Of a stretch of 28,063 bases of DNA, positions 1,939 through 28,063 are shown one piece after another. Numbering within the stretch: the stretch's first letter is position 1; each line of letters opens with the position of its first letter. A program made the position numbers and the translations under genes. Source of the stretch: a virus (taxonomy: Duplodnaviria; Heunggongvirae; Uroviricota; Caudoviricetes); IMG/VR virus record IMGVR_UViG_651053023_000002, positions 1-28,063 of that record; one strand, written 5' to 3'. The notes beneath the pieces are model-generated. The model saw nothing but the letters and a program-made list of their open reading frames with translations, had not been told where the DNA came from and searched no databases.

Positions 1939-1980
1939 TGAACCGCCCCGGGTTTCCTGGAGAGTGTTTTATCTGTGAAC

Positions 1981-2871
1981 TCAGGCTGCCAGATCATTGT
2001 TTCCGATGGAAGCATAATAAGCTTTTTCTGCTTCTGCCGGAGGAGTATGGCCCAGCCTTCCCAGCAATCGTCGATTGTTATACCAGTCCACCCACGTTAG
2101 TGTGGCCAGTTCCACTTCTGCACGGTTTTTCCAGCTCTTACGGTGTATTACCTCCGCTTTGTAAAGACCATTGATGCTCTCAGCCATCGCGTTGTCATAC
2201 GAGTCGCCTGTACTCCCTGTTGATGCCAGTAATCCGGCTTCTTTTAGTCGCTCCGTATAGGCCAGTGACACATACTGAGAGCCTTTATCGCTGTAATGGA
2301 TGGTGCCAGACGGACGACGGGCCCACAACGCCTGCTCCAGCGCATCCAGCACGAATGTCGTTTCCATAGACGATGAGACCCGCCCCCCCACGATGTATCC
2401 GGCAAACACATCAATGATAAACGCCACATAGACGAAGCCCTGCCATGTGCTGACGTAAGTAAAATCAGCCACCCACAGCTGGTCAGGACGTTCTGCCACG
2501 AACTGACGGTTTACGCGGTCACCTGTGGCAACGGTTTTCCGGCTGACGGTAGTGCGGACCTTTTTACCCCGGAGAACACCGGCAAGTCCCATAACCGCCA
2601 TGAGGCGCGCCACTGTACATCTGGCCACCCTGATTCCTTCCCGTAACAACTGACGCCAGACTTTACGCACACCGTACACCTGATGATTTTCATCGTATAC
2701 GCGCTGTATCTCTCTCTTCAGCCAGTCATCGTGCTGCGCACGGGCACTGCGTTTATCCGGATGATGTCGCTGTTGCTGACAATGGTAATACGTTGACGGG
2801 GCAATATGCAGTTCGCTGCATACCGGTCCGACCCCGTACTGCTCACGCAGCTTATCCAGCAGTGGCATCAT
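1981..2871 (-). CDS. IS3-family transposase OrfB (DDE integrase domain), 296 aa
   Basis: [16 protein letters not shown]... with DDE-type catalytic core. Differs from the copy-2 OrfB at 6 residues, including G where copy 2 has W in GWRVSSS. Confidence 0.85.
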
Positions 2872-3194
2872 TTTTTCCAGAGGCGGTCGAACTCCGCCTT
2901 CGCAAAATAAGCGGAAGCCTGGCGAAGGATATCGTTACTGCGGCGCAGTTCACGATTTTCACGTTCCAGCTCTTTCAGACGCTGACGTTCAGCGCTGGTG
3001 AGCCCACCATCACCGCCCCCGGTATCCCGCTCATGCTGGCGAACCCAGACACGCAGAGTCTCCGGCGTACAGCCAATCTTTGGGGCAATGGAACAAATTG
3101 CCGCCCACTGTGAGTCATATTCATCCTGACTTTCCAGAACCATACGAATCGCCCGCTGACGGACTTCGGGGGAAAAACGAGTATTTTTAGTCAT
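2868..3194 (-). CDS. IS3-family transposase OrfA (HTH), 108 aa
   Basis: [22 protein letters not shown]... Identical to the copy-2 OrfA. Overlaps orfB by 4 nt. Confidence 0.85.
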
Positions 3195-3268
3195 CCTGTT
3201 TACCTCTTTCTCAGGGAGTTTAGTCTCCAGGATTTCCGGGGCGGTTCAGATATTATCGTGAGGATGCG

Positions 3269-3949
3269 TCATCGCCATTGCTCCCCAAATACAAAACCAA
3301 TTTCAGCCAGTGCCTCGTCCATTTTTTCGATGAACTCCGGCACCATCTCGTCAAAACTCGCCATGTACTTTTCATTCCGCTCAATCACGACATAATGCAG
3401 GCCTTCACGCTTCATGCGCGGGTCATAGTTGGCAAAGTACCAGGCATCTTTTCGCGTCACCCACATGCTGTACTGCACCTGGGCCATGTAAGCCGATTTT
3501 ATTGCCTCGAAACCACCGAGCCGGAATTTCATGAAATCCCGGGAGGTAAACGGGCATTTCAGTTCAAGGCCGTTGCCGTCACTGCATAAACCATCGGGAG
3601 AGCAGGCGGTGCGCATACTTTCGTCGCGATAGATGATCGGGGATTCAGTAATATTCACGCCGGAAGTGAATTCAAACAGGGTTCTGGCGTCGTTCTCGTA
3701 CTGTTTTCCCCAGGCCAGCGCCTTAGCATTAACTTCCGGAGCCACACCGGTGCAAACCTCAGCCAGCAGGGTGTGGAAGTAGGACATTTTCATGTCAGGC
3801 CACTTCTTTCCTGAGCGGGGCTTTGCTATCACGTTGTGAACTTCTGAAGCGGTGATGACGCCGAGCCGTAATTTGTGCCATGCATCATCCCCCTGTTCGA
3901 CAGCTCTCACGTCGATCCCGGTACGCTGCAGGATAATGTCCGGTATCAT
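3269..3949 (-). CDS. exo: Lambda-type exonuclease (Red alpha / Exo), 226 aa, apparently intact
   Basis: Near-identical to lambda Exo as recalled ([40 protein letters not shown]...GEQWR). ATGA overlap with the upstream bet-derived ORF. Confidence 0.9.
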
Positions 3950-4326
3950 GCTGCCACCTTCTGCTCAGTGGCTTTCTGTTTCAGGAATCCAAGAGCTTTC
4001 ACTGCTTCGGCCTGTGTCAGTTCTGACGATGCGCGAATGTCGCGGCGAAATATCTGGGAACAGAGCGGCAATAAGTCGTCATCCCATGTTTTATCCAGGG
4101 CGATCAGCAGAGTGTTAATCTCCTGCATGGTTTCATCGTTAATGGCTTTTTTGCTGGCCCCGTGGCGTTGCAAATGATCGATGCATAGCGATTCAAACAG
4201 GTGCTGGGGCAGGCCTTTTTCCATGTCGTCTGCCAGTTCTGCCTCTTTCTCTTCACGGGCGATCTGCTGGTAGTAACGCGCCCAGCTCTGAGCCTCAAGA
4301 CGATCCTGAATGTAATAAGCGTTCAT
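3946..4326 (-). pseudogene. In-frame gam'::'bet deletion fusion: GamS N-terminal ~60 aa joined to Bet C-terminal ~66 aa
   Basis: Residues 1-60 ([60 protein letters not shown]) match lambda Gam. Residues 61-126 ([58 protein letters not shown]...) match the lambda Bet C-terminus. Junction near 4146. Confidence 0.8.
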
Positions 4327-4608: not shown

Positions 4609-4829
4609 AAAAACTCCTGCCCGTAAGCTGGGCTGCTGAACATATAGAGACTTCTGCGCGTATTCAGGCGGTGGATGGCCGCCGGTTGTCATAACTAAGC
4701 CGCCTCGTTGAAGCGACTGAGGTATAAAGTGTTGTGTTGATTTCAGCTGGTCACACCGACGTTCACGCGTCCGTTTCACCCCTCGCACTCCCCGAAGCCT
4801 GCTGAAATTCAAACTGCGGATCTAAGCGG

Positions 4830-4881
4830 TCATCGCAACGGTGAAACAGGTGGTTACCGTATCGTTGTGTCGTTGCGATGA
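4830..4881. promoter_or_regulatory. 11-bp perfect inverted repeat (TCATCGCAACG / CGTTGCGATGA) with 30-nt spacer between pL/OL and kilR-like
   Basis: Seen directly. No U-run follows on either strand, so it is not a classic intrinsic terminator. Candidate protein-binding palindrome or leader RNA structure. Confidence 0.35.
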
Positions 4882-4889
4882 ATTTATTT

Positions 4890-4965
4890 AAAACTATAGT
4901 TGTTTTATCGTCAACAACAAAAGTTGTTTTATCGGTTGTTTTAAATATAACTGGTTGTATTTAGG
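4890..4965 (-). promoter_or_regulatory. Putative OL operator cluster and pL promoter
   Basis: Multiple copies of the (T)GGTTGTT / AACAAC half-site (4898-4904, 4912-4918, 4922-4928, 4935-4941, 4952-4958). The same motif forms the palindrome in OR. Lies just upstream of the leftward operon. Confidence 0.55.
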
Positions 4966-5047: not shown

Positions 5048-5080
5048 GGGAGGAAAAGAAAACCCGGCGCGGTTGCCGGG
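5048..5080 (-). terminator. Rho-independent terminator downstream of the lipoprotein gene
   Basis: Hairpin CCCGGCGCGGTTGCCGGG (5063-5080), followed on the minus-strand transcript by UUUUCUUUUCC. Confidence 0.7.
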
Positions 5081-5088
5081 TATGATTA

Positions 5089-5469
5089 TCAGTCAGCCCA
5101 ACCTGATTTCGAGTTTATTTGGGTTTCTGACATTGTGTATTTCTTAATCGTGTCATCGTTAAAAAGAATAGTAAGTTCTTTTTTCGTACCGTTCGTTCCG
5201 TTATGGAATAATCCATAGAATGGAATAAAAGTGGTGCCATTAACTTTTACTTTTGCAAAGGCGTACTTCCAGATCTCCTTTCCACTGTCAGTATATGAAA
5301 CAGCATCAGGAGAACCAAAGTAAGATTTAACCTCATTCTTGGTTGTTTTACCTTCCTGAAGTTTAGACTGGACACTAATTTCAGTTTCATTTTTGAGTTG
5401 CTGGTTGCCTGAAGAAGCACACCCAGCCAATACAGATGCCATCATGGCAGCGATTAGGATTTTTCTCAT
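5089..5469 (-). CDS. Lipoprotein (126 aa) in the cI-proximal rexAB position; candidate superinfection-exclusion or defence moron
   Basis: Signal peptide with lipobox MRKILIAAMMASVLAG-C. Mature part is Lys/Thr-rich with weak BamE/SmpA_OmlA-like pattern. Same strand as and downstream of cI, with its own terminator. Confidence 0.6.
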   Translation of the reverse strand: MRKILIAAMMASVLAGCASSGNQQLKNETEISVQSKLQEGKTTKNEVKSYFGSPDAVSYTDSGKEIWKYAFAKVKVNGTTFIPFYGLFHNGTNGTKKELTILFNDDTIKKYTMSETQINSKSGWAD

Positions 5470-5698
5470 TTTATGTTTCCATTCATTATAATCAGAAACA
5501 TCTTAACATAATGATTCGAAATAAAAACCGCTACGAGATAGGGAGACATTTTGCTGACAGTAGCAACAAATCTCAGCTAACAACGAGAATATTTACTGAA
5601 ATATGCAAACAGATTTGGCGTTCTTATAGAGAATTTAGTGCAATATCTAATCCGAGTGGTATAAACCTTAACCTTCGCTCCCTTAAGTCGTAGATAAA

Positions 5699-6388
5699 TT
5701 AACCATGCTTCCTGTACGTCTGCGGCATGCTTCCAATGACCTTACCGAATATGAACACCCGGTTCATCTCGTCTTTCTCGATCGGGTCCCACGGCGAGTA
5801 GCTCTTGTTATCAGAGATAACCAGCAGCTTATCCTTCATCATTTGAAGACGTTTTACATGGGCAGTGTCGTCGTACAGAAACGCATAGATGCCATCACCG
5901 TCGAAAGATTTAACAGTGATATCAACGAACAGCAGGTCACCTGGTTCGATCGTCCCTGACATGCTGTCACCTCGCACGTTAATGATGCGGATATTTTCCG
6001 CCTTCCTGCCATCGAACATGTGACGAGCATCGTCAAACGAGTACTCAACCGAGCGTAGAACTTCTACAAACTCACGGTTGATTACACCTGGCCCGGCACT
6101 GACTTCTATATCAAGAACGTCAATTTTGAAGTATTTGGAATGGCTGACAGTTGATTGTATTGGTTGCACTGTACTGTCTGACATATTTCCAACGCCAGAA
6201 GATAACCATTCTGCGCGTACACCCAAAGCGTTCGCGATCTCCACGATTTTAGTTGTTTGGTTAGCTTTCCCTGTTTCGATTTTCTGAATAGCAGCCTGGC
6301 TAACCCCGACCAAATCCCCAAGCGCCTTTTGTGTAAGGCCTCGCGCTAATCTGGCTTCTTTAAGTCTTTCTGAGAGTGTTGTTTTCAT
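5699..6388 (-). CDS. cI: CI-type prophage repressor (HTH_XRE plus S24 LexA-like autopeptidase), 229 aa
   Basis: N-terminal HTH (LTQKALGDLVGVSQAAIQKIETGK). Ala-Gly cleavage site (VSAGPG). Catalytic Ser in GDSM and Lys in HVKRL. Divergent from the cro-like gene. No SD before the ATG, consistent with a leaderless pRM transcript. Confidence 0.85.
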   Translation of the reverse strand: MKTTLSERLKEARLARGLTQKALGDLVGVSQAAIQKIETGKANQTTKIVEIANALGVRAEWLSSGVGNMSDSTVQPIQSTVSHSKYFKIDVLDIEVSAGPGVINREFVEVLRSVEYSFDDARHMFDGRKAENIRIINVRGDSMSGTIEPGDLLFVDITVKSFDGDGIYAFLYDDTAHVKRLQMMKDKLLVISDNKSYSPWDPIEKDEMNRVFIFGKVIGSMPQTYRKHG

Positions 6389-6492
6389 AGATCAAATGTA
6401 CAACCAAGGTTTTATTTCATCAAACGAAAATGGTTGTTGACTAAAAACAACCATAGTTTTAATCTTGATTCGGATTAACCACGGAGGTTGTT
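6389..6492. promoter_or_regulatory. OR operator region with divergent pRM/pR promoters
   Basis: 23-bp palindrome TGGTTGTTgactaaaAACAACCA (6431-6453), plus half-sites ACAACCA (6400-6406) and GGTTGTT (6486-6492). Lies between divergent cI and cro. Confidence 0.65.
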
Positions 6493-6723
6493 ATGAACCC
6501 AGCAATCAAAACAGCGATCAATATCGTTGGTTCACAAAAGAAACTAGGCGATGCCTGCGAAGTTTCACAGCAGGCCGTCTATAAGTGGCTTCACAACAAA
6601 GCAAAGGTATCCCCTGAACATGTCGGCAGCATTGTTACGGCTACTGGTGGAGTTGTGAAGGCATACCAGATTCGCCCGGATCTTCCGAAGTTGTTTCCAC
6701 ACACCGAAAAGAACGCAGCTTAA
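6493..6723 (+). CDS. Cro-like HTH regulator (YdaS/Cro family), 76 aa
   Basis: Small HTH protein (LGDACEVSQQAVYKWL) divergent from cI, with GGAGG SD. Positional Cro analogue. Confidence 0.7.
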   Translation: MNPAIKTAINIVGSQKKLGDACEVSQQAVYKWLHNKAKVSPEHVGSIVTATGGVVKAYQIRPDLPKLFPHTEKNAA

Positions 6724-6792
6724 ATTTCCATTTCACGCTCTTTAACAATAAGCAATCAACTTAACAGTCAATTCAAACTAAAGGAGTCAATT

Positions 6793-7332
6793 ATGCAACC
6801 ACTTACATACCAACAGACTAGCGGATTTATTCCGACTGCGGTGATAAATCGTTCTCAAACAAAACAAGCTCCAGGCCACGAAAAAATCCGTGATGCCGTC
6901 CGCGCCTGGTCGGCTGTAGATAATCAGGATGTCGTTGCCGCACTCATTGTGAATGAGTATCGGGAGCAGGGCGACGGCACCATCGATTTCCCTGATGATG
7001 TCAGCCGTGCACGCCAGAAGCTGTTCCGCTTCCTCGATAACAAATTCGATTCTGAAAAATACCGAAATAACGTGCGTGAACTGACCCCGGCAATTCTGGC
7101 GGTACTACCGCTGGAATATCGCGGTTACCTGGTTGAGCAGGATAGCTTCATGACTCGGTTGGCTGAAATGGAAAAGGAACTCAGTGAGGCAAAACAGGCT
7201 GTCATTCTCAACGCACCACGCCACCAGAAACTGAAGGAAATGAGTGAAGGTATTGTGTCGATGTTTCGTGTGGACCCGGATCTGGCTGGTCCATTAATGG
7301 CGATGGTGACCACCATGCTGGGGGCAATATGA
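6793..7332 (+). CDS. YdaT-like protein in the cII position, 179 aa
   Basis: Segment LTPAILAVLPLEYRGYL resembles Rac YdaT (LIPAILAILPRELR) as recalled. AAGGAG SD. Sits between cro and O. Confidence 0.5.
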   Translation: MQPLTYQQTSGFIPTAVINRSQTKQAPGHEKIRDAVRAWSAVDNQDVVAALIVNEYREQGDGTIDFPDDVSRARQKLFRFLDNKFDSEKYRNNVRELTPAILAVLPLEYRGYLVEQDSFMTRLAEMEKELSEAKQAVILNAPRHQKLKEMSEGIVSMFRVDPDLAGPLMAMVTTMLGAI

Positions 7333-7418
7333 CAGGTTCAGAAATGGCGAAAGTCGGTCTGCGGGAACAGAACCGACTTTCAGGTGCAAATCGTAACACA
7401 CTCATTGCGGGAGGAATT

Positions 7419-8348
7419 ATGGCAAACACTGCTGAGATATTCAATTTTCCAGTGCCGGATGCGGCACAAAAGGAGCCGCGCGTGGCAGATCTCGATGATG
7501 GTTATACGCGCATTGCAAATGAGTTGCTGGAAGCTGTGATGCTGGCCGGATTAACACAGCACCAGCTTCTGGTCTTCCTGGCTGTCATGCGCAAAACATA
7601 TGGCTTTAATAAAAGACTGGATTGGGTGAGCAACGAGCAACTTTCCGAATTGACCGGGATATTGCCGCACAAGTGTTCTGCTGCAAAAAGCGTTCTGGTA
7701 AAGCGTGGGATTCTTATTCAGAGCGGGCGAAATATCGGCATTAATAATGTGGTCAGTGAATGGTCAACATTACCCGAATCAGGTAAGAAAAATAAAGTTT
7801 ACCTGAAAGAGGTAAATTTACCTGAATCAGGTAAGAAAAGTTTACCCAAATCAGGTAAAGGCGTTTACCCGAATCAGGTAAACACAAAAGACAAACTAAC
7901 AAAAGACAATATAAAACCTTTTTCGTCCGAGAATTCTGGCGAATCCTCTGACCAGCCAGAAAACGACCTTCCTGTGGTGAAACCGGATGCTGCAATTCAG
8001 AGTGGCAGCAAGTGGGGGACAGCAGAAGACCTGACCGCCGCAGAGTGGATGTTTGACATGGTGAAGACCATCGCGCCATCAGCCAGAAAACCGAATTTTG
8101 CAGGGTGGGCTAACGATATCCGCCTGATGCGTGAACGTGACGGACGTAACCACCGCGACATGTGCGTGCTGTTCCGCTGGGCATGCCAGGACAACTTCTG
8201 GTCCGGTAACGTGCTGAGTCCGGCCAAACTCCGCGACAAGTGGACCCAGCTCGAAATCAACCGAAACAAGCAACAGGCTGGCGTGACAGCCGGCAAACCA
8301 AAACTCGACCTGACGAACACTGACTGGATTTACGGGGTGGATTTATGA
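7419..8348 (+). CDS. O: Replication initiator O (lambda O family), about 309 aa; six-frame ORF starts earlier at 7329
   Basis: N-terminal domain with VADLDDGY...LLVFLAVMRKTYGFNK matches lambda O. Iteron-encoded linker. GGGAGG SD before ATG at 7419. Overlaps P by ATGA. Confidence 0.85.
   Translation: MANTAEIFNFPVPDAAQKEPRVADLDDGYTRIANELLEAVMLAGLTQHQLLVFLAVMRKTYGFNKRLDWVSNEQLSELTGILPHKCSAAKSVLVKRGILIQSGRNIGINNVVSEWSTLPESGKKNKVYLKEVNLPESGKKSLPKSGKGVYPNQVNTKDKLTKDNIKPFSSENSGESSDQPENDLPVVKPDAAIQSGSKWGTAEDLTAAEWMFDMVKTIAPSARKPNFAGWANDIRLMRERDGRNHRDMCVLFRWACQDNFWSGNVLSPAKLRDKWTQLEINRNKQQAGVTAGKPKLDLTNTDWIYGVDL
7770..7882. repeat. Origin of replication: five ~17-bp iterons (TTACCYRAATCAGGTAA, one variant TTACCTGAAAGAGGTAA) inside the O gene, followed by an AT-rich tract to about 7925
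   Basis: Five tandem near-palindromic repeats at about 19-23 bp spacing, then cacaaaagacaaactaacaaaagacaatataaaacc. Same architecture as lambda ori. Confidence 0.8.
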
Positions 8349-9412: not shown

Positions 9413-9745
9413 ATGAACCCTTATATTTATCTTGGTGGTGCAATACTTGCAGAGGTCATTGGTACAACCTTAATGAAGTTTTCAGAAGGTTTTACACGGT
9501 TATGGCCATCTGTTGGTACAATTATTTGTTATTGTGCATCATTCTGGTTATTAGCTCAGACGCTGGCTTATATTCCTACAGGGATTGCTTATGCTATCTG
9601 GTCAGGAGTCGGTATTGTCCTGATTAGCTTACTGTCATGGGGATTTTTCGGCCAACGGCTGGACCTGCCAGCCATTATAGGCATGATGTTGATTTGTGCC
9701 GGTGTGTTGATTATTAATTTATTGTCACGAAGCACACCACATTAA
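9413..9745 (+). CDS. emrE: Small multidrug resistance efflux transporter EmrE (110 aa)
   Basis: MNPYIYLGGAILAEVIGTTLMKFSEGFTRLWPSVGTIICYCASFWLLAQTLAYIPTGIAYAIWSGVGIVLISLLSWGFFGQRLDLPAIIGMMLICAGVLIINLLSRSTPH matches E. coli EmrE, including Glu14. The six-frame ORF has an 18-codon upstream extension. Confidence 0.95.
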   Translation: MNPYIYLGGAILAEVIGTTLMKFSEGFTRLWPSVGTIICYCASFWLLAQTLAYIPTGIAYAIWSGVGIVLISLLSWGFFGQRLDLPAIIGMMLICAGVLIINLLSRSTPH

Positions 9746-9775
9746 AATAATTTGTTTCTAAACGACTAAAATATG

Positions 9776-9808
9776 GAGGCTCTTATATTTATATGAGCCT
9801 CGTTTTAT
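9776..9808 (+). terminator. Rho-independent terminator after emrE
   Basis: Hairpin GAGGCTC-ttatatttatat-GAGCCTC followed by GTTTTATGCTTTTT. Confidence 0.6.
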
Positions 9809-9999: not shown

Positions 10000-10569
10000 A
10001 TGAAAAAAGCCATAGCATATATGCGATTTTCATCACCAGGTCAGATGTCTGGCGACTCATTAAACCGACAGAGAAGACTTATTGCTGAATGGTTAAAGGT
10101 AAATAGTGATTATTATCTTGATACCATAACATATGAAGATTTAGGATTAAGTGCATTCAAAGGAAAGCATGCACAATCAGGAGCTTTTTCGGAATTTTTA
10201 GATGCTATAGAGCATGGTTATATATTGCCAGGAACTACATTGTTAGTTGAAAGTCTGGACAGACTTTCAAGAGAAAAAGTCGGTGAAGCGATTGAACGTC
10301 TGAAATTGATTTTGAATCACGGTATTGATGTTATAACTCTTTGCGACAATACAGTCTATAATATTGGCTCTTTGAATGAGCCATATTCATTAATAAAAGC
10401 CATACTTATAGCACAAAGGGCAAATGAAGAAAGCGAGATAAAGTCAAGTCGGGTTAAATTATCATGGAAGAAAAAACGGCAGGATGCACTGGAATCAGGT
10501 ACGATTATGACGGCGTCTTGTCCGAGATGGCTCTCCTTAGATGACAAAAGAACGGCTTTTGTTCCAGAC
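10000..10569 (+). pseudogene. ybcK: ybcK (serine recombinase, resolvase-type N-terminal domain), 5' part, interrupted by IS2
   Basis: N-terminus MKKAIAYMRFSSPGQ... fits a resolvase catalytic domain with Ser nucleophile context. The reading frame runs into the IS2 terminus at 10570. Confidence 0.8.
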
Positions 10570-10580
10570 TGGATTTGCCC

Positions 10581-11486
10581 CTATATTTCCAGACATCTGT
10601 TATCACTTAACCCATTACAGGCCCGCTGCCGCAGATATTCCCGTGGCGAGCGATAACCCAGCGCACTATGCGGATGCCATTCGTTATAATGCTCGAACGC
10701 CTCTGCAAGGTTCTTTGCTGCCGTTAACCCGTCTGGTTTGGGCATGATACTGATGTAGTCACGCTTTATCGTTTTCACGAAGCTCTCTGCTATTCCGTTA
10801 CTCTCCGGACTCCGCACCGCCGTGTTCTTCGGTTCAAGTCCCAACATCCGGGCGAACTGGCGTGTTTCATTAGCCCGGTAGCATGAACCATTATCCGTCA
10901 GCCACTCCACTGGAGACGACGGAAGATCGTTGCCGAAGCGGCGTTCCACCGCTCCCAGCATGACGTCCTGTACTGTTTCACTGTTGAAGCCGCCGGTAGT
11001 GACCGCCCAGTGCAGTGCCTCACGATCACAGCAGTCCAGCGCGAACGTGACACGCAGTCTCTCTCCGTTATCACAGCAGAACTCGAACCCGTCAGAGCAC
11101 CATCGCTGATTGCTTTCTTTCACGGCCACTCTGCCTGTATGTGCCCGTTTCGATGGCGGTACAGCAGGTTTTCGCTCAAGCAACAGCGCATTCTGGCGCA
11201 TGATCCGGTAAACACGTTTGGCATTGATCGCAGGCATACCATCAAGTTCTGCCTGTCTGCGAAGCAGCGCCCATACCCGACGATAACCATACGTTGGCAG
11301 CTCTCCGATAACATGGTGTATACGGAGAAGCACATCCGTATCATCAGTGTGACGACTGCGGCGGCCATCCATCCAGTCATCGGTTCGTCTGAGAATGACG
11401 TGCAACTGCGCACGCGACACCCGGAGACAACGGCTGACTAAGCTTACTCCCCATCCCCGGGCAATAAGGGCGCGTGCGCTATCCAC
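10581..11486 (-). CDS. insD: IS2 transposase InsD (OrfB), 301 aa
   Basis: [34 protein letters not shown]... with DDE integrase core. Matches IS2 InsD. Confidence 0.9.
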
Positions 11487-11809
11487 TTTTTTGCCCGTCC
11501 ATATTCAACGGCTTCTTTGAGGAGTTCATTTTCCATCGTTTTCTTGCCGAGCAGGCGCTGGAGTTCTTTAATCTGCTTCATGGCGGCAGCAAGTTCAGAG
11601 GCAGGAACAACCTGTTCTCCGGCGGCGACAGCAGTAAGACTTCCTTCCTGGTATTGCTTACGCCAGAGAAATAACTGGCTGGCTGCTACACCATGTTGCC
11701 GGGCAACGAGGGAGACCGTCATCCCCGGTTCAAAGCTCTGCTGAACAATTGCGATCTTTTCCTGTGTGGTACGCCGTCTGCGTTTCTCCGGCCCTAAGAC
11801 ATCAATCAT
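11444..11809 (-). CDS. insC: IS2 transposase InsC (OrfA), 121 aa
   Basis: [53 protein letters not shown]... Overlaps insD in the frameshift window. Confidence 0.85.
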
Positions 11810-11905
11810 CTGTTCTCCAATGACTAGTCTAAAAACTAGTATTAAGACTATCACTTATTTAAGTGATACTGGTTGTCTGGAGATTCAGGGGGCCAGTCTA
11901 CAGAC

Positions 11906-12862
11906 CCCGACAGGGTGAAAACTATTGAGCTAATTTTTAAACTCAGGATGGAAAGGCGCTCATTGAATGCAATAGCCAAGTATTTAAATGATCATGCTGT
12001 AAAGAATTTCTCAGGAAAAGAAAGTGCATGGGGACCTTCTGTAATTGAAAAATTATTAGCGAATAAAGCTCTGATAGGTATTTGCGTACCTTCATATCGT
12101 GCAAGAGGGAAAGGGATAAGTGAAATCGCTGGCTATTATCCCAGAGTCATATCAGATGATTTGTTTTACGCTGTACAGGAAATTCGGTTGGCACCTTTTG
12201 GTATTAGCAATAGTAGCAAGAATCCTATGCTAATAAATCTACTTCGAACAGTTATGAAGTGTGAGGCTTGTGGTAATACCATGATTGTTCATGCGGTATC
12301 TGGAAGTTTGCATGGCTATTATGTTTGTCCGATGAGAAGATTACATCGATGTGACAGGCCATCAATAAAAAGAGATTTGGTTGATTATAATATCATTAAT
12401 GAATTGCTTTTTAATTGTAGCAAAATTCAACCAGTTGAAAACAAGAAAGATGCTAATGAAACTTTAGAGTTAAAAATTATTGAGCTTCAGATGAAAATTA
12501 ATAATTTAATCGTTGCATTGTCTGTCGCGCCTGAAGTTACCGCTATAGCAGAGAAAATAAGACTATTAGATAAGGAATTACGAAGGGCTTCGGTATCATT
12601 GAAAACTTTGAAGAGTAAAGGTGTAAATTCATTCAGTGATTTTTATGCTATTGACTTAACCAGTAAAAATGGACGAGAGTTATGCCGTACACTTGCCTAT
12701 AAAACATTCGAAAAAATCATAATTAATACGGATAATAAAACCTGTGATATCTATTTTATGAATGGCATTGTTTTTAAACACTATCCTTTAATGAAAGTAA
12801 TATCCGCCCAGCAGGCGATAAGTGCTCTCAAATATATGGTTGATGGTGAGATTTATTTCTAA
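11906..12862 (+). pseudogene. ybcK: ybcK, 3' part (recombinase C-terminal region)
   Basis: Frame is continuous with 10000..10569 once IS2 and one CAGAC copy are removed. Restored product is 508 aa. Cys-rich segment CEACGNTMIVH...YYVCPMRRLHRCDRP suggests a zinc-ribbon recombinase domain. Confidence 0.8.
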
Positions 12863-13326: not shown

Positions 13327-13878
13327 ATGAAAACACTTATCGTTTCAACTGTATTGGCATTCATAACATTTTCTGCGCAGGCTGCAGCATTTCAGGTCAC
13401 TAGTAATGAAATAAAAACAGGAGAGCAACTTACAACGTCTCATGTCTTTTCTGGATTTGGGTGTGAAGGTGGTAATACATCGCCCTCATTAACCTGGTCT
13501 GGTGTTCCTGAAGGTACCAAAAGCTTTGCCGTAACTGTATATGATCCAGATGCACCTACAGGCAGTGGTTGGTGGCATTGGACTGTTGTTAATATTCCAG
13601 CAACAGTAACATATTTGCCCGTTGATGCAGGGAGACGTGATGGAACAAAACTGCCGACTGGTGCTGTTCAAGGCCGAAATGATTTTGGCTATGCTGGGTT
13701 TGGTGGCGCATGTCCTCCTAAAGGAGATAAACCACATCATTACCAGTTTAAAGTATGGGCTCTAAAAACTGAAAAGATTCCTGTAGATTCTAACTCCAGC
13801 GGAGCGTTAGTTGGTTATATGCTTAATGCTAATAAAATCGCAACCGCTGAGATAACACCAGTTTATGAGATAAAGTAG
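13327..13878 (+). CDS. ybcL: Periplasmic PEBP/RKIP-family protein YbcL (183 aa)
   Basis: Signal peptide MKTLIVSTVLAFITFSAQA. PEBP motifs (YDPDAP, GWWHW, HHYQFKVWAL). Matches DLP12 YbcL. Confidence 0.85.
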   Translation: MKTLIVSTVLAFITFSAQAAAFQVTSNEIKTGEQLTTSHVFSGFGCEGGNTSPSLTWSGVPEGTKSFAVTVYDPDAPTGSGWWHWTVVNIPATVTYLPVDAGRRDGTKLPTGAVQGRNDFGYAGFGGACPPKGDKPHHYQFKVWALKTEKIPVDSNSSGALVGYMLNANKIATAEITPVYEIK

Positions 13879-13887
13879 GGTGAGAGT

Positions 13888-14685
13888 ATGCTGGCAAGAG
13901 GTAAGACTAACTTAAAGATCGAAGAAATACGGATGCATAAACATCATGAGATTCATAGGGTTAAGCCTCTTATGCCAGCTTTGTGTCGTATCCGTCAGGG
14001 AAAGAAAGTTATCAATTGGGAGACGCATACTTTAACTGTTGATAATAATCAAATAATATTATTTCCTTGTGGTTATGAATTTTATATTGAGAATTATCCT
14101 GAAGCAGGGCTTTATCTTGCAGAAATGCTTTACTTACCCATTGATTTAATTGAGAGTTTCCAAAAACTTTATACGGTAACTGATCAAATACGTAACAAAA
14201 CAAGTTTCTTTTTACCTCAGAATCCTGAGTTAATATATTGTTGGGAGCAACTAAAAACATCTGTTTCCCGAGGCTTCTCAACTAAAATTCAGGAGCACTT
14301 AGCAATGGGCGTTCTACTTTCGTTAGGAGTGAATCATGTTAATCATTTACTTTTATCATATAGTAAACAATCATTGATAAGTCGTTGTTATAACCTGCTG
14401 CTATCCGAACCCGGCACAAAATGGACAGCAAACAAGGTTGCTCGATATCTCTACATTTCTGTTTCTACATTACATCGCCGTCTAGCAAGCGAGGGGGTAA
14501 GTTTCCAAAGTATACTGGACGATGTGAGGTTAAATAATGCGTTGTCTGCTATACAAACGACGGTAAAACCTATAAGCGAGATTGCCAGAGAAAATGGTTA
14601 TAAGTGTCCTTCTCGTTTTACTGAAAGATTTCATAATCGTTTTAATATAACACCAAGAGAGATAAGAAAAGCTTCCAGAGAGTAA
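13888..14685 (+). CDS. ybcM: AraC-family transcriptional regulator YbcM (265 aa)
   Basis: C-terminal AraC HTH ([25 protein letters not shown]...[32 protein letters not shown]). Confidence 0.85.
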
Positions 14686-16962: not shown

Positions 16963-17001
16963 TTAGAACTGGTAAACCAGACCTACAGCAACGATGTCAT
17001 C
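16963..17001 (-). pseudogene. nmpC: nmpC porin, 3' terminal fragment (last 12 codons plus stop) separated by IS copy 2
   Basis: Encodes DDIVAVGLVYQF-stop, the canonical porin C-terminal beta-strand ending in Phe. Confidence 0.85.
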
Positions 17002-17055
17002 TGAACCGCCCCGGAAATCCTGGAGACTAAACTCCCTGAGAAAGAGGTAAACAGG

Positions 17056-17382
17056 ATGACTAAAAATACTCGTTTTTCCCCCGAAGTCCGTCAGCGGGCG
17101 ATTCGTATGGTTCTGGAAAGTCAGGATGAATATGACTCACAGTGGGCGGCAATTTGTTCCATTGCCCCAAAGATTGGCTGTACGCCGGAGACTCTGCGTG
17201 TCTGGGTTCGCCAGCATGAGCGGGATACCGGGGGCGGTGATGGTGGGCTCACCAGCGCTGAACGTCAGCGTCTGAAAGAGCTGGAACGTGAAAATCGTGA
17301 ACTGCGCCGCAGTAACGATATCCTTCGCCAGGCTTCCGCTTATTTTGCGAAGGCGGAGTTCGACCGCCTCTGGAAAAAATGA
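17056..17382 (+). CDS. IS3-family transposase OrfA, 108 aa
   Basis: Identical to the copy-1 OrfA. Confidence 0.85.
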
Positions 17383-18269
17383 TGCCACTGCTGGATAAGC
17401 TGCGTGAGCAGTACGGGGTCGGACCGGTATGCAGCGAACTGCATATTGCCCCGTCAACGTATTACCATTGTCAGCAACAGCGACATCATCCGGATAAACG
17501 CAGTGCCCGTGCGCAGCACGACGACTGGCTGAAGAGAGAGATACAGCGCGTATACGATGAAAATCATCAGGTGTACGGTGTGCGTAAAGTCTGGCGTCAG
17601 TTGTTACGGGAAGGAATCAGGGTGGCCAGATGTACAGTGGCACGTCTCATGGCGGTTATGGGACTTGCCGGTGTTCTCCGGGGTAAAAAGGTCCGTACGA
17701 CCATCAGCCGGAAAGCCGTTGCCGCAGGCGACCGCGTAAACCGTCAGTTCGTGGCAGAACGACCTGACCAGCTGTGGGTGGCTGATTTTACTTACGTCAG
17801 CACATGGCAGGGCTTCGTCTATGTGGCGTTTATCATTGATGTGTTTGCCGGATACATCGTGGGGTGGCGGGTCTCATCGTCTATGGAAACGACATTCGTG
17901 CTGGATGCGCTGGAGCAGGCGTTGTGGGCCCGTCGTCCGTCTGGCACCATCCATCACAGCGATAAAGGCTCTCAGTATGTGTCACTGGCCTATACGGAGC
18001 GACTAAAAGAAGCCGGATTACTGGCATCAACAGGGAGTACAGGCGACTCGTATGACAACGCGATGGCTGAGAGCATCAATGGTCTTTACAAAGCGGAGGT
18101 AATACACCGTAAGAGCTGGAAAAACCGTGCAGAAGTGGAACTGGCCACACTAACGTGGGTGGACTGGTATAACAATCGACGATTGCTGGGAAGGCTGGGC
18201 CATACTCCTCCGGCAGAAGCAGAAAAAGCTTATTATGCTTCCATCGGAAACGATGATCTGGCAGCCTGA
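17379..18269 (+). CDS. IS3-family transposase OrfB, 296 aa
   Basis: DDE transposase. Has the W in GWRVSSS where copy 1 has G. Confidence 0.85.
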
Positions 18270-18311
18270 GTTCACAGATAAAACACTCTCCAGGAAACCC
18301 GGGGCGGTTCA

Positions 18312-19373
18312 ATCAGTGCTTACACCGAGTGCTTTAGTGAAGTCATTTTTGTCAAGCAGGTTGATTTTGTAATCAACGAAAGTAGACATATTTTTGTTGA
18401 AGTAATAGGTTGCACCTACATCAACATATTTGACTAAGTCCTGATCGCCCCATACTCCAAGATCCTTACCTTTAGATTGCAGGTAAGCAACGGACGGACG
18501 CAGACCGAAATCGAACTGATATTGTGCAACAGCTTCGAAGTTTTGGGCTTTATTAGCAACGAAGTGATCAGCAAATACAGTCATATTCTGGGTTTCAGAA
18601 TAGGTAGTGGCCAGGTAAATGTTGTTAGCGTCATATTTCAGACCTGCGGCCCAAACTTCTGCATTTTTACCGGAAGCAAATACTTCAGGAAGAACTTTCC
18701 CTGCATTAACTTGAGTGTCGGTACGATCAGATTTCGCATAAGTTGCACCGATACCGAATCCTTCGTATTCATAGGTAGCAGAGAAACCGAAGCCATCACC
18801 GTTACCTTCAGTGTAGTTATCGAAATCGCTACGATCGTTTTTGCCTTGGTACTGAGCAGCAAAGTTCAGACCATCAACCAGACCAAAGAAGTCGTTGTTA
18901 CGATAGGTTGCAACACCAGTTGCACGTTGAGTCATGAACACGTCGGTTTGAGTCCAAGTGTCACCACCGAATTCTGGCAGGACGTCAGTCCACGCACCGA
19001 TGTCGTATGCTACACCGTAGTTACGGCCGTAATCGATGGAGCCGTAGTCACCGAATTTCAGGCCAGCGAAGGCAAGACGGGTTTTATCTTTGGAGGAACC
19101 TTGAGATTCAGCGCGGTTGCCTTTGAATTCATATTCCCACTGACCGAAACCAGTCAGTTGATCGTTGATTTGGGTTTCACCTTTGAAGCCAAGATGGGCA
19201 TAAGTAGTATCACCATCATCTGCATCATTAGAGGAGAAGTAGTGCTTAGCATTAACTTTCCCGTACAGATCCAGCTTGTTACTGTCTTTATTATAAATTT
19301 CAGCTGCCTGAGCAGACATCGCCATCAGTACTGATGCAGCTACAGCAGAAATTGCCACTGTTAATTTTTTCAT
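18312..19373 (-). pseudogene. nmpC: nmpC outer-membrane porin (OmpC/OmpF family), 5' 354 codons, truncated by IS copy 2
   Basis: Signal peptide [23 protein letters not shown] then [17 protein letters not shown]...[22 protein letters not shown]...[17 protein letters not shown]. Frame is continuous with 16963..17001 after removing the IS and one ATC. Confidence 0.85.
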
Positions 19374-19800
19374 CGTGAGCCCTTTTTTTGAACTATTATT
19401 AAAAAATGATGTCACTGCGCGATAAATATTCATCTAATCAATGTGATTATTTCAAGATGTAAGTTTTGGTTTCTCGTTTGATTTGTGAAGTAGATCTCTA
19501 TTTTTATCTGAACTTTTTTCTATCGAATCCTATTCATGGCTCTTGGCTGAATAAAAATAAATCTATTAGCCAATTTATATTAACGGCTGTTATTTATAAG
19601 CGCTCTATAATTTGAAGGTTCAATTTAAACCGGCTAAAAATAACACTGGAAATTATTTTTTGGTTATTTGTTGAGATTTGCTTATGTATTTGTAGTGGTG
19701 TTTTCAATACTCGGTAGCATTCTCTCAAATATCATTTAGTGGTTTACGTACGTAAAAAATTGGTTATGCTGTTAAGAGTGGTTACTTCGTCACACAGCTT

Positions 19801-27313: not shown

Positions 27314-28063
27314 ATGGATTATGTTTGCTCCGTAGTTTTCATCTGTCAATCATTTGATTTAATTATAAACAGGAGAGTTATCTCGTTCAAAAAAAATTCA
27401 TTGTTTATTGTAAGCGACAAAATTAGAAGGGAGTTACCAGTATGCCCCTCTAAACTAAGAATTGTTGATATAGATAAGAAAACATGTTTATCCTTTTTTA
27501 TCGACGTGAATAATGAGCTGCCTGGCAAATTTACTCTTGATAAGAATGGCTATATTGCTGAAGGGGAACCTCCATTATCGCTTGTTTTTTCTCTGTTTGA
27601 AGGGATTAAAATAGCAGACTCACACTCCCTTTGGTTAAAAGAAAGACTATGTATATCCTTACTTGCCATGTTCAAAAAACGCGAAAGTGTAAATTCTTTT
27701 ATACTAACAAATATAAATACATTTACCTGTAAAATTACTGGAATAATCAGTTTTAATATTGAGCGGCAATGGCATTTAAAAGATATTGCGGAATTGATTT
27801 ATACGAGTGAAAGTTTAATAAAAAAAAGATTAAGGGATGAAGGAACATCATTTACTGAAATATTGAGAGATACTAGGATGAGGTATGCAAAAAAACTCAT
27901 AACTTCAAACTCTTATTCTATCAATGTCGTAGCCCAGAAATGTGGCTATAACAGTACTTCATATTTCATATGTGCATTTAAAGATTATTATGGTGTCACG
28001 CCATCTCATTATTTTGAGAAAATAATCGGCGTCACAGATGGAATAAACAAAACAATTGACTGA
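27314..28063 (+). CDS. appY: AraC-family transcriptional activator AppY (249 aa)
   Basis: [47 protein letters not shown]...[23 protein letters not shown] matches E. coli AppY. Low-GC gene preceded by a long AT-rich region. Confidence 0.9.

Follow-up and report, generated by a model that had tools for sequence, protein, structure and literature searches.

The subject of this analysis is a gene for a 126-amino-acid (aa) lipoprotein in the immunity region of a 28,063-nucleotide (nt) stretch of tailed-phage DNA (IMG/VR record IMGVR_UViG_651053023_000002), the whole of which is referred to here as the window. The gene, which directly follows the cI-type repressor gene, is a self-contained accessory cassette (moron), and its product is very probably a moron-borne outer-membrane lipoprotein of the BamE superfamily. 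As the gene occupies both classical exclusion/defence slots of phage genomes, one behind the repressor and one in the tail module, and, in Serratia prophages, adjoins a gp15-family gene, we tentatively propose that it may act in superinfection exclusion at the level of the envelope, a role to which we give somewhat less than an even chance. An earlier note on this DNA regarded the gene as a candidate undescribed exclusion or defence factor. The family is in fact already catalogued (PHROG 3135, SEN1984 family), and its proposed role is read from genomic position.

The lipoprotein gene and its cassette

The window between positions 4800 and 6500 is 99.6% identical to Escherichia phage PhiR26_1 (PV340555), whose record gives E. 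coli K-12 MG1655 as the host. The features of this region are the following, in order of position.

4888-4965, no strand assigned: cluster of left operators (OL) and region of the leftward promoter (PL), immediately 3' of the terminator, with direct repeats at 4892-4910 and 4916-4934
5052-5081 (-): intrinsic terminator with a 7-bp GC-rich stem, a 6-nt loop and a U-tract, closing the cI-lipoprotein unit
5082-5709, no strand assigned: cassette inserted relative to phage PhiR34_1, delimited by alignment and G+C profile
5089-5469 (-): lipoprotein coding sequence, 126 aa plus stop codon, supported by the list of open reading frames (ORFs), the match to PHROG 3135, homologues, and a non-synonymous divergence (dN) far below the synonymous one (dS)
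5419-5469 (-): signal peptide (residues 1-16) and lipidated Cys17, read directly from the sequence, with the lipobox LAGC at 5430-5419
5470-5698 (-): AT-rich spacer of 229 nt between the cI stop codon and the ATG of the lipoprotein gene
5500-5508 (-): extended -10-like element TGTTAAGAT (TGnTAAGAT), recognised by positional conservation
5699-6388 (-): cI-type repressor gene (HTH_3 and Peptidase_S24), directly upstream of the lipoprotein gene and co-oriented with it
6419-6462, no strand assigned: right operators (OR), between cI and the cro-like gene
6493-6723 (+): YdaS/Cro-like gene, divergent from cI

The lipoprotein gene is real and under constraint. Its product starts with MRKILIAAMMASVLAG, followed by CASSGNQQ from the lipidated cysteine onwards, and comprises a positively charged n-region (MRK), a hydrophobic core (ILIAAMMASV) and the lipobox LAG-C (L14-A15-G16-C17), which fits the pattern [LVI][ASTVI][GAS]C. 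In an alignment of 75 diverse homologues, C17 does not vary and G21 and N22 vary little or not at all, which, together with the sequence itself, confirms the lipoprotein of outer-membrane type, with lipobox LAG-C and Ala at +2, described in the earlier note. With Ala at +2 and Ser at +3, the avoidance Asp is absent, and by the Lol rule the protein would face the periplasm, anchored in the outer membrane's inner leaflet. The +2 residue in the alignment rows shown is A, S, T, V, W or Q, and Asp in none. The product matches PHROG 3135 (function unknown) with an E-value of 7.7e-48, residues 1-124 covering positions 1-114 of the 114-position profile. There are 227 close homologues, and 865 cluster representatives match at E<1e-3 among the 1.84 billion representatives searched. 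Compared with other enterobacterial copies, dN is 0.10-0.14 and dS is saturated, giving a dN/dS below 0.1. No model of NCBIfam release 20 reaches its cut-off with the lipoprotein; the matches to Ag473, TrsH and other lipoprotein models, far below their cut-offs, involve N-terminal residues only, mainly the signal peptide and lipobox, and were discarded. An 85-aa antisense ORF at 5436-5693 (+) was treated as spurious: it is confined to near-identical loci and is unannotated in PhiR26_1. The lipoprotein itself is recorded in PhiR26_1 as a "putative lipoprotein", and a literature search found no publication on the PhiR phages or on this protein.

The position of the gene in the immunity region is clear. 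The reverse complement of the 19-mer at 4888-4906 agrees at 95% with the OR site at 6444-6462, and OL therefore lies downstream of the lipoprotein gene, which is located between cI and OL. This operator match bears out the earlier placement of the gene directly 3' of cI, on the same strand and before OL, in the slot equivalent to that of rexAB. No terminator-like site was found between cI and the lipoprotein gene. The terminator hairpin at 5081-5062 (-), with the stem ACCCGGC/GCCGGGT around the loop AACCGC and followed by UUUUCUUUU, lies 8 nt past the stop codon and folds with -18.2 kcal/mol (z -2.4). Within the 229-nt spacer, the upstream ~190 nt are restricted to the E. coli lineage. The spacer was considered as the leftover of another cargo gene, an idea that was dropped when blastn and tblastx matched only 23 near-identical loci; an RNA gene in the spacer or its flanks was likewise rejected, Rfam giving one chance match of 13.8 bits. 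On the other side of the operators, at 4812-4890 (-), there is no N gene between OL/PL and kil. The ~80-nt PL leader found there forms a hairpin with an 11-bp stem (-20.6 kcal/mol, z -2.8), which is kept in PhiR34_1 and has no Rfam match; it may be an N-independent, put-like or other leader element.

The cassette is readily delimited by comparison with the collinear phages PhiR34_1 and Turner, which lack the lipoprotein gene: its edges are sharp, at about 5082 and 5709, and its G+C content is 35-38%, versus ~50% in the flanks. Presence or absence between collinear phages, combined with deviant G+C, is the mark of a moron (Juhala/Hendrix, PMC3594210), and the cassette exhibits both. PhiR34_1 has the same cI, OL and terminator, nearly base for base, without the lipoprotein gene. 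As this lipoprotein-less phage carries the same terminator, the terminator is a feature of the phage backbone and not the cassette's own, contrary to what had been proposed earlier. The cassette thus lacks one further mark of a moron, a terminator of its own; copies in the tail slot have a different terminator.

With regard to transcription, the 5' flanks of 58 non-redundant loci were compared. A core TGnTA(A/G)GAT is located ~30-35 nt 5' of the ATG in most cassettes, in immunity-region and tail-module contexts alike, often just past the terminator of the preceding unit, and in some loci a TTGACC -35 element lies at 16 nt. The window copy has a poor -35 and was not called by a simple promoter scan. 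The conservation of the motif at a constant distance from the ATG in unrelated contexts makes a second promoter for the lipoprotein gene plausible, so that this earlier suggestion stands in part, although in the window the motif alone is not significant. A second class, of ~15 loci, has only 47 nt between cI and the gene and no promoter motif, and an operon with cI is therefore implied. Just 3' of the -10-like element, most cassettes (L002, L004, L047, L053 and others) exhibit a perfect 10-bp palindrome, GATTGCAATC; the window version at 5484-5493 (-), ATTATAAT, is palindromic still. This palindrome could be an operator for some regulator. A leader hairpin hiding the ribosome-binding site (UUUCC/GGAAA) was also considered and rejected, as RNAalifold gave no consensus structure and the pair counts were no better than in shuffled or slid controls.

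Fold and relationship to BamE

An AlphaFold2 model built with the 75 diverse homologues (mean pLDDT 86.7) exhibits two helices on a three-stranded sheet, preceded by a short N-terminal strand. This strand begins directly after the lipidated cysteine, and almost no tether is therefore left in the model, in which the mature domain would be held near the membrane. The mature protein is accordingly modelled as a compact alpha-alpha-beta-beta-beta domain of the BamE/BLIP type, which is the fold of the SmpA/OmlA superfamily. The top nine Foldseek matches in the PDB are all BamE chains, with TM-scores of 0.62-0.69 on the target, and the matches listed in a fold search of BFVD are only SmpA/OmlA-type lipoproteins of Pseudomonas phages. 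In sequence comparisons, hhalign pairs the family profile with E. coli BamE at 91.5% probability and 25% identity, whereas the Pfam family BamE (PF04355) scores 21.5 bits, below its cut-off of 23.2, and the family profile matches PDB BamE sequences with an E-value of about 0.05. The faint BamE/SmpA_OmlA-like pattern noticed earlier is thus genuine remote homology, as judged from the Pfam score, Foldseek and hhalign together.

The lipoprotein is nevertheless not an orthologue of BamE (SmpA/OmlA, PF04355), from which it differs in several respects. It is only ~20-25% identical to BamE, has nearly no N-terminal tether, and carries an extra C-terminal strand as well as an 11-residue insertion, a conserved hydrophobic loop that hhalign leaves unaligned.

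5203-5238 (-): hydrophobic loop, codons 78-89 (VNGTTFIPFYGL), a segment of low pLDDT inserted relative to BamE

This loop (residues ~78-90) has a conserved (F/Y)(I/V)P...LF motif, here FIPxxGLF, in which P83 is nearly invariant. The gene also has the distribution of prophage cargo and not that of a core gene: the segment is found in 77 of 5426 complete E. coli genomes (1.4%), every time on the chromosome, and near-identical phage or viral copies directly follow the same cI. E. coli carries its own core bamE. In the complete E. coli genomes, PGAP usually labels the protein "outer membrane protein assembly factor BamE" and once "SEN1984 family lipoprotein" (NZ_AP045810); the BamE label is an over-annotation.

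The resemblance could mean that the lipoprotein is a mimic of BamE that docks on the β-barrel assembly machinery (BAM), at BamA POTRA5/BamD, replacing BamE or sitting beside it, and alters outer-membrane protein assembly or the conformation of BamA. This could result in fewer receptors, in exclusion of BamA-dependent phages or toxins, or in help with the assembly of the phage porin, Lom and omptin. Such a mimic is improbable, even though BamE is the best match by both structure and profile, the conservation of the family across phyla fits a universal partner such as BamA or BamD, and the parent phage encodes three β-barrel proteins. Besides the low identity to BamE, below the Pfam cut-off, the N-terminal segment differs, hhalign does not pair the invariant GN of the family with the QGN of BamE, and the inserted loop and extra strand have no counterpart in BamE; in addition, many carrier phages lack barrel morons. 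The bolder form of this idea, for which the chances are slimmer still, is that a phage-borne BamE paralogue on BAM reshapes BamA or its output, thereby excluding BamA-using phages or contact-dependent toxins, or controlling which receptor barrels reach the surface. If true, the chromosomal relatives would constitute an unrecognised accessory BAM lipoprotein, and prophages would manipulate outer-membrane biogenesis as a defence.

The BLIP-type fold also brings to mind a periplasmic immunity or inhibitor protein that, like BLIP and BtiO, would bind and neutralise a toxin or enzyme acting in the periplasm; examples are type VI secretion effectors, domains of colicins or bacteriocins, and the muralytic enzyme carried by the tail of an infecting phage. 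We consider this unlikely. Immunity proteins usually evolve fast beside their effector, whereas this lipoprotein family is conserved and has no conserved neighbour, and what the protein shares with BLIP and BtiO is the fold, not the sequence.

Genomic slots, candidate functions and parent prophage

We surveyed 94 loci with close homologues (78-100% identity) from phage records, IMG/VR and assemblies, the viral contigs being scanned with the single lipoprotein sequence as query. In 61 of the 94 loci, the gene follows a repressor gene, including three unrelated S24/HTH clusters and one Arc-type repressor. In 27 others, it is located in the tail module, just upstream of the tape-measure gene, among KilA-N/Bro-N genes and genes for small lipoproteins or secreted proteins. 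The remaining six are elsewhere, one of them on a plasmid-like contig with ParAB and another at a chromosomal site. The tail slot of Serratia prophages has the gene directly next to a YebO/gp15-family gene, and the distant homologues of Pseudomonas phage vB_Pae_U7 and Alteromonas phage P24 are also found just upstream of the tape-measure gene. The carriers include lambda-like and Rac-like phages and further siphophages of several genera. The protein tree places tail-slot copies, which share the same 5' element, within clades of the immunity slot; the cassette has therefore switched slots more than once.

The interval between cI and OL in sibling phages with the same backbone holds variable cargo: the PADLOC candidates PDC-M63 (PhiR30_1), PDC-M11 (PhiR47_2) and PDC-M66 (PhiR5_1), an unrecognised pair of proteins of ~340 aa and ~150-170 aa (PhiR68_2 and Perceval), or nothing (PhiR34_1 and Turner). 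This synteny agrees with the description of the slot as a cargo hotspot in the earlier note, and the corresponding cI-N interval is a known mosaic hotspot with rexAB and bstA (bioRxiv 10.1101/2020.07.13.199331). The smaller protein of the unrecognised pair is annotated as transmembrane in Perceval, and the layout of the pair resembles RexA/RexB. The lipoprotein gene of Citrobacter and Enterobacter prophages is immediately followed, before kil/PL, by a conserved ORF of 68-97 aa on the opposite strand that has no match in Pfam. The moron island 5' of the tape-measure gene of many enterobacterial prophages contains further small lipoproteins or signal-peptide proteins together with a YebO gene (HK97 gp15 family). 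Coordinates of these neighbouring features are as follows.

L139:1518-2872, L138:1503-2931, L010:3305-4878, L140:1448-2903, L141:1327-2877: cargo of the cI-OL slot in sibling phages
L005:6413-6619 (-), L052:5056-5298 (-) and 22 further loci: opposite-strand ORF of 68-97 aa
L065:6414-6815, L086:6399-6794, L079:6438-6815, L091:6834-7493, L016:5766-6011: examples of the tape-measure moron island

These slots are the main argument for superinfection exclusion, which is strengthened by the fact that the gene fills a second known exclusion slot in addition to the first. It is also consistent with exclusion that the gene is intact in a prophage stripped of bet and of most structural genes, and that siblings keep PADLOC defence candidates at the same place. 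In the lysogen, the lipoprotein would be expressed through read-through from the repressor promoter, which is expected as no terminator lies between cI and the gene, and possibly through additional transcription from a putative extended -10 promoter of its own. It could then serve as a protein-binding module on the periplasmic side of the outer membrane and block a step between adsorption and DNA passage of an incoming phage. The target would be a host component of the outer membrane or periplasm, or the tail tip or tape-measure protein of the incoming phage, and no intracellular abortive mechanism would be involved.

Several observations weigh against exclusion. Both slots also house non-defence morons, so that position is suggestive only. 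Relatives at 37-58% identity are ordinary chromosomal genes among housekeeping neighbours, in Nitrospirae, Delta-, Zeta- and Betaproteobacteria, Verrucomicrobia, Lentisphaerae and others, and phage genes are not among the commonest neighbouring families of these relatives. As these relatives lie among housekeeping genes, the ancestral role is not anti-phage, and the phage copies show no obvious divergence from it. A literature search gave no functional data on any family member, and no family of PADLOC-DB 2.0 matched the lipoprotein at E<=1. No similarity to Cor or Llp was detected: PHROG 1119 (Cor) gives an E-value of 0.064, over the signal peptide only, with no stretch passing alone, and neither protein is among the fold matches listed for the PDB or BFVD. 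Nor is the gene tied to one receptor-binding protein, since many phages that lack the gene have a J C-terminus 96-100% identical to that of PhiR26_1. Finally, the putative promoter of the cassette is a consensus match, of which the window has a single one where ~1.7 are expected by chance. Cor and Llp accompany phages that use FhuA. A Cor-like link between the gene and the receptor-binding domain of the tail tip was looked for and rejected on account of this shared J end; a Cor-type model tied to a single receptor is disfavoured, and the analogy with Cor and Llp drawn in the earlier note is not upheld.

The chromosomal relatives point to another explanation. In diderm bacteria the family is an old one of chromosomal envelope lipoproteins, and the enterobacterial sequences that were examined place it on mobile elements, namely prophages, to which the literature adds the ROD21 island gene SEN1984. 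The phage copies may therefore have kept the ancestral function and serve, much as Bor or OsmE do, as a lysogenic-conversion factor for the envelope fitness of the host that does not act on phages directly. The benefit might be outer-membrane robustness, tolerance of stress or serum, or colonisation. Taken by itself this is rather unlikely, yet it is a close rival of exclusion. It is in line with the wide occurrence of the family as single, highly conserved chromosomal genes in many diderm phyla, with no conserved partner (none was found among 125 neighbouring proteins), with a fold similar to that of OsmE and YfeY-type stress lipoproteins, and with the purifying selection that holds the phage copies near the family consensus. 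The parent phage is, moreover, rich in envelope morons (porin, Bor, Lom and omptin), and the namesake of the family, SEN1984, is located in the Salmonella pathogenicity island ROD21 (PMC10655114, PMC3198454). However, a fitness role does not predict the repeated use of two exclusion/defence slots beside a gp15/YebO-family gene, there is no core-genome copy in E. coli, as seen from the 77 genomes mentioned above, and no phenotype is on record for any family member.

It is very improbable that the gene is a neutral passenger of no benefit to prophage or host. The prophage in the window is decaying through insertions of insertion sequences (IS) and deletions, which would fit such a passenger, but the ORF is intact where its neighbours are not, its dN/dS is below 0.1, and the cassette has spread repeatedly, both from genus to genus and from slot to slot.

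The window as a whole is a decayed relative of PhiR26_1: it bears IS insertions and a bet deletion and no longer has the head genes or most of the tail genes. The lipoprotein gene is intact, as are cI and cro. Two IS3-family copies in inverted orientation, at 1939-3248 (-) and 17001-18312 (+), are missing from PhiR26_1. Each comprises orfA (108 aa) and orfB (296 aa), with an ALIL frameshift pseudoknot that scores 121.5 bits in either copy; the first adjoins exo and the second the porin gene. At 10000-12862, a large serine recombinase is apparently split by a third IS on the opposite strand, with Resolvase at 10000-10656, Recombinase and Zn-ribbon at 11873-12862, and the IS (rve integrase) at 10581-11486. 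This segment of the nin region is unlike PhiR26_1, where PD-lambda-1 is located. At 3946-4326 (-), ~705 bp of PhiR26_1, comprising most of bet, are gone, and the 126-aa ORF found there, of which only the first 64 residues match Gam, is apparently a gam'-'bet fusion. At the junction at ~23887, the terminase Nu1 region is joined straight to tail-tip I/J sequence; head genes and most tail genes are thereby lost, and the prophage is therefore defective. A PEBP-family gene and an AraC-type regulator gene are located at 13327-14685, in the nin/Q-proximal region, and a second AraC-type gene, at 27314-28063, runs off the end of the window; the PEBP-family and AraC-type genes may resemble ybcL and ybcM of prophage DLP12. 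The outer-membrane morons of the PhiR26_1 lineage are an OmpD/NmpC-type porin, Bor, Lom and an omptin protease.

18309-19433 (-): outer-membrane moron in the window
6617-7714, 9490-9783, 30523-31122 and 37782-38735 of PhiR26_1 (L135): outer-membrane morons

Comparison with known exclusion and conversion systems

Few envelope proteins by which prophages stop other phages have been described, and their mechanisms are mostly unexplained (Cor, Llp, SieA and gp15). The lipoprotein family is common in enterobacterial prophages, and its fold is known for protein-protein inhibition and for BAM function. If exclusion is true, this would be a new mechanism acting in the outer membrane from the periplasmic side, and it would correct the BamE annotation that PGAP gives to most E. 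coli copies. If the gene instead serves envelope fitness, it is one more conversion gene, and the position in the slot is a weak predictor of defence. Specialists would find little surprise in the gene unless the BAM mimic is true, although the sequenced PhiR26_1 makes the gene a worthwhile experimental candidate.

The closest parallel is gene 15 of HK97, the first moron to be described, which encodes an inner-membrane protein of the YebO family that blocks DNA entry of superinfecting phages (PMC3594210). It is located between the tail assembly chaperone and the gene for the tape measure, the same slot as that of the lipoprotein in 27 of the 94 loci, and both belong to envelope-protein families of chromosomal origin that phages have taken up as morons with a promoter, a putative one in the case of the lipoprotein (PMC3594210). 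In contrast, gp15 is a single-pass inner-membrane protein, whereas the lipoprotein is of outer-membrane type and unrelated in sequence and fold; exclusion is demonstrated for gp15 and only proposed for the lipoprotein, and the window gene is in the cI slot instead.

With regard to the cI slot, rexAB of lambda and bstA of BTP1 occupy the same position as the lipoprotein gene, 3' of the repressor gene, co-oriented with it and ending at the terminator of the immunity region. This cI-N/OL slot is highly transcribed in lysogens (bioRxiv 10.1101/2020.07.13.199331). However, rexAB and bstA are cytoplasmic or inner-membrane abortive-infection systems, whereas the product here is predicted to be a single exported lipoprotein, with no match in PADLOC.

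Within its own family, the lipoprotein is comparable to SEN1984 of the Salmonella Enteritidis island ROD21, a reported family member encoded by a 378-bp gene and described as an exported lipoprotein that is BamE-like by Phyre2 prediction (PMC10655114, PMC3198454). The two are assigned to the same family by name, via the PGAP label on one E. coli copy. SEN1984, which is equally uncharacterised, is located on an excisable island, whereas the lipoprotein gene lies in a prophage immunity region.

Cor (phi80, N15 and HK022) and Llp (T5) are likewise small phage-encoded outer-membrane lipoproteins, some of them expressed from prophages. In its mode of action, the lipoprotein would resemble at most the class of prophage envelope morons that comprises Cor, Llp, gp15 and Bor, and it is a member of none of these four families.

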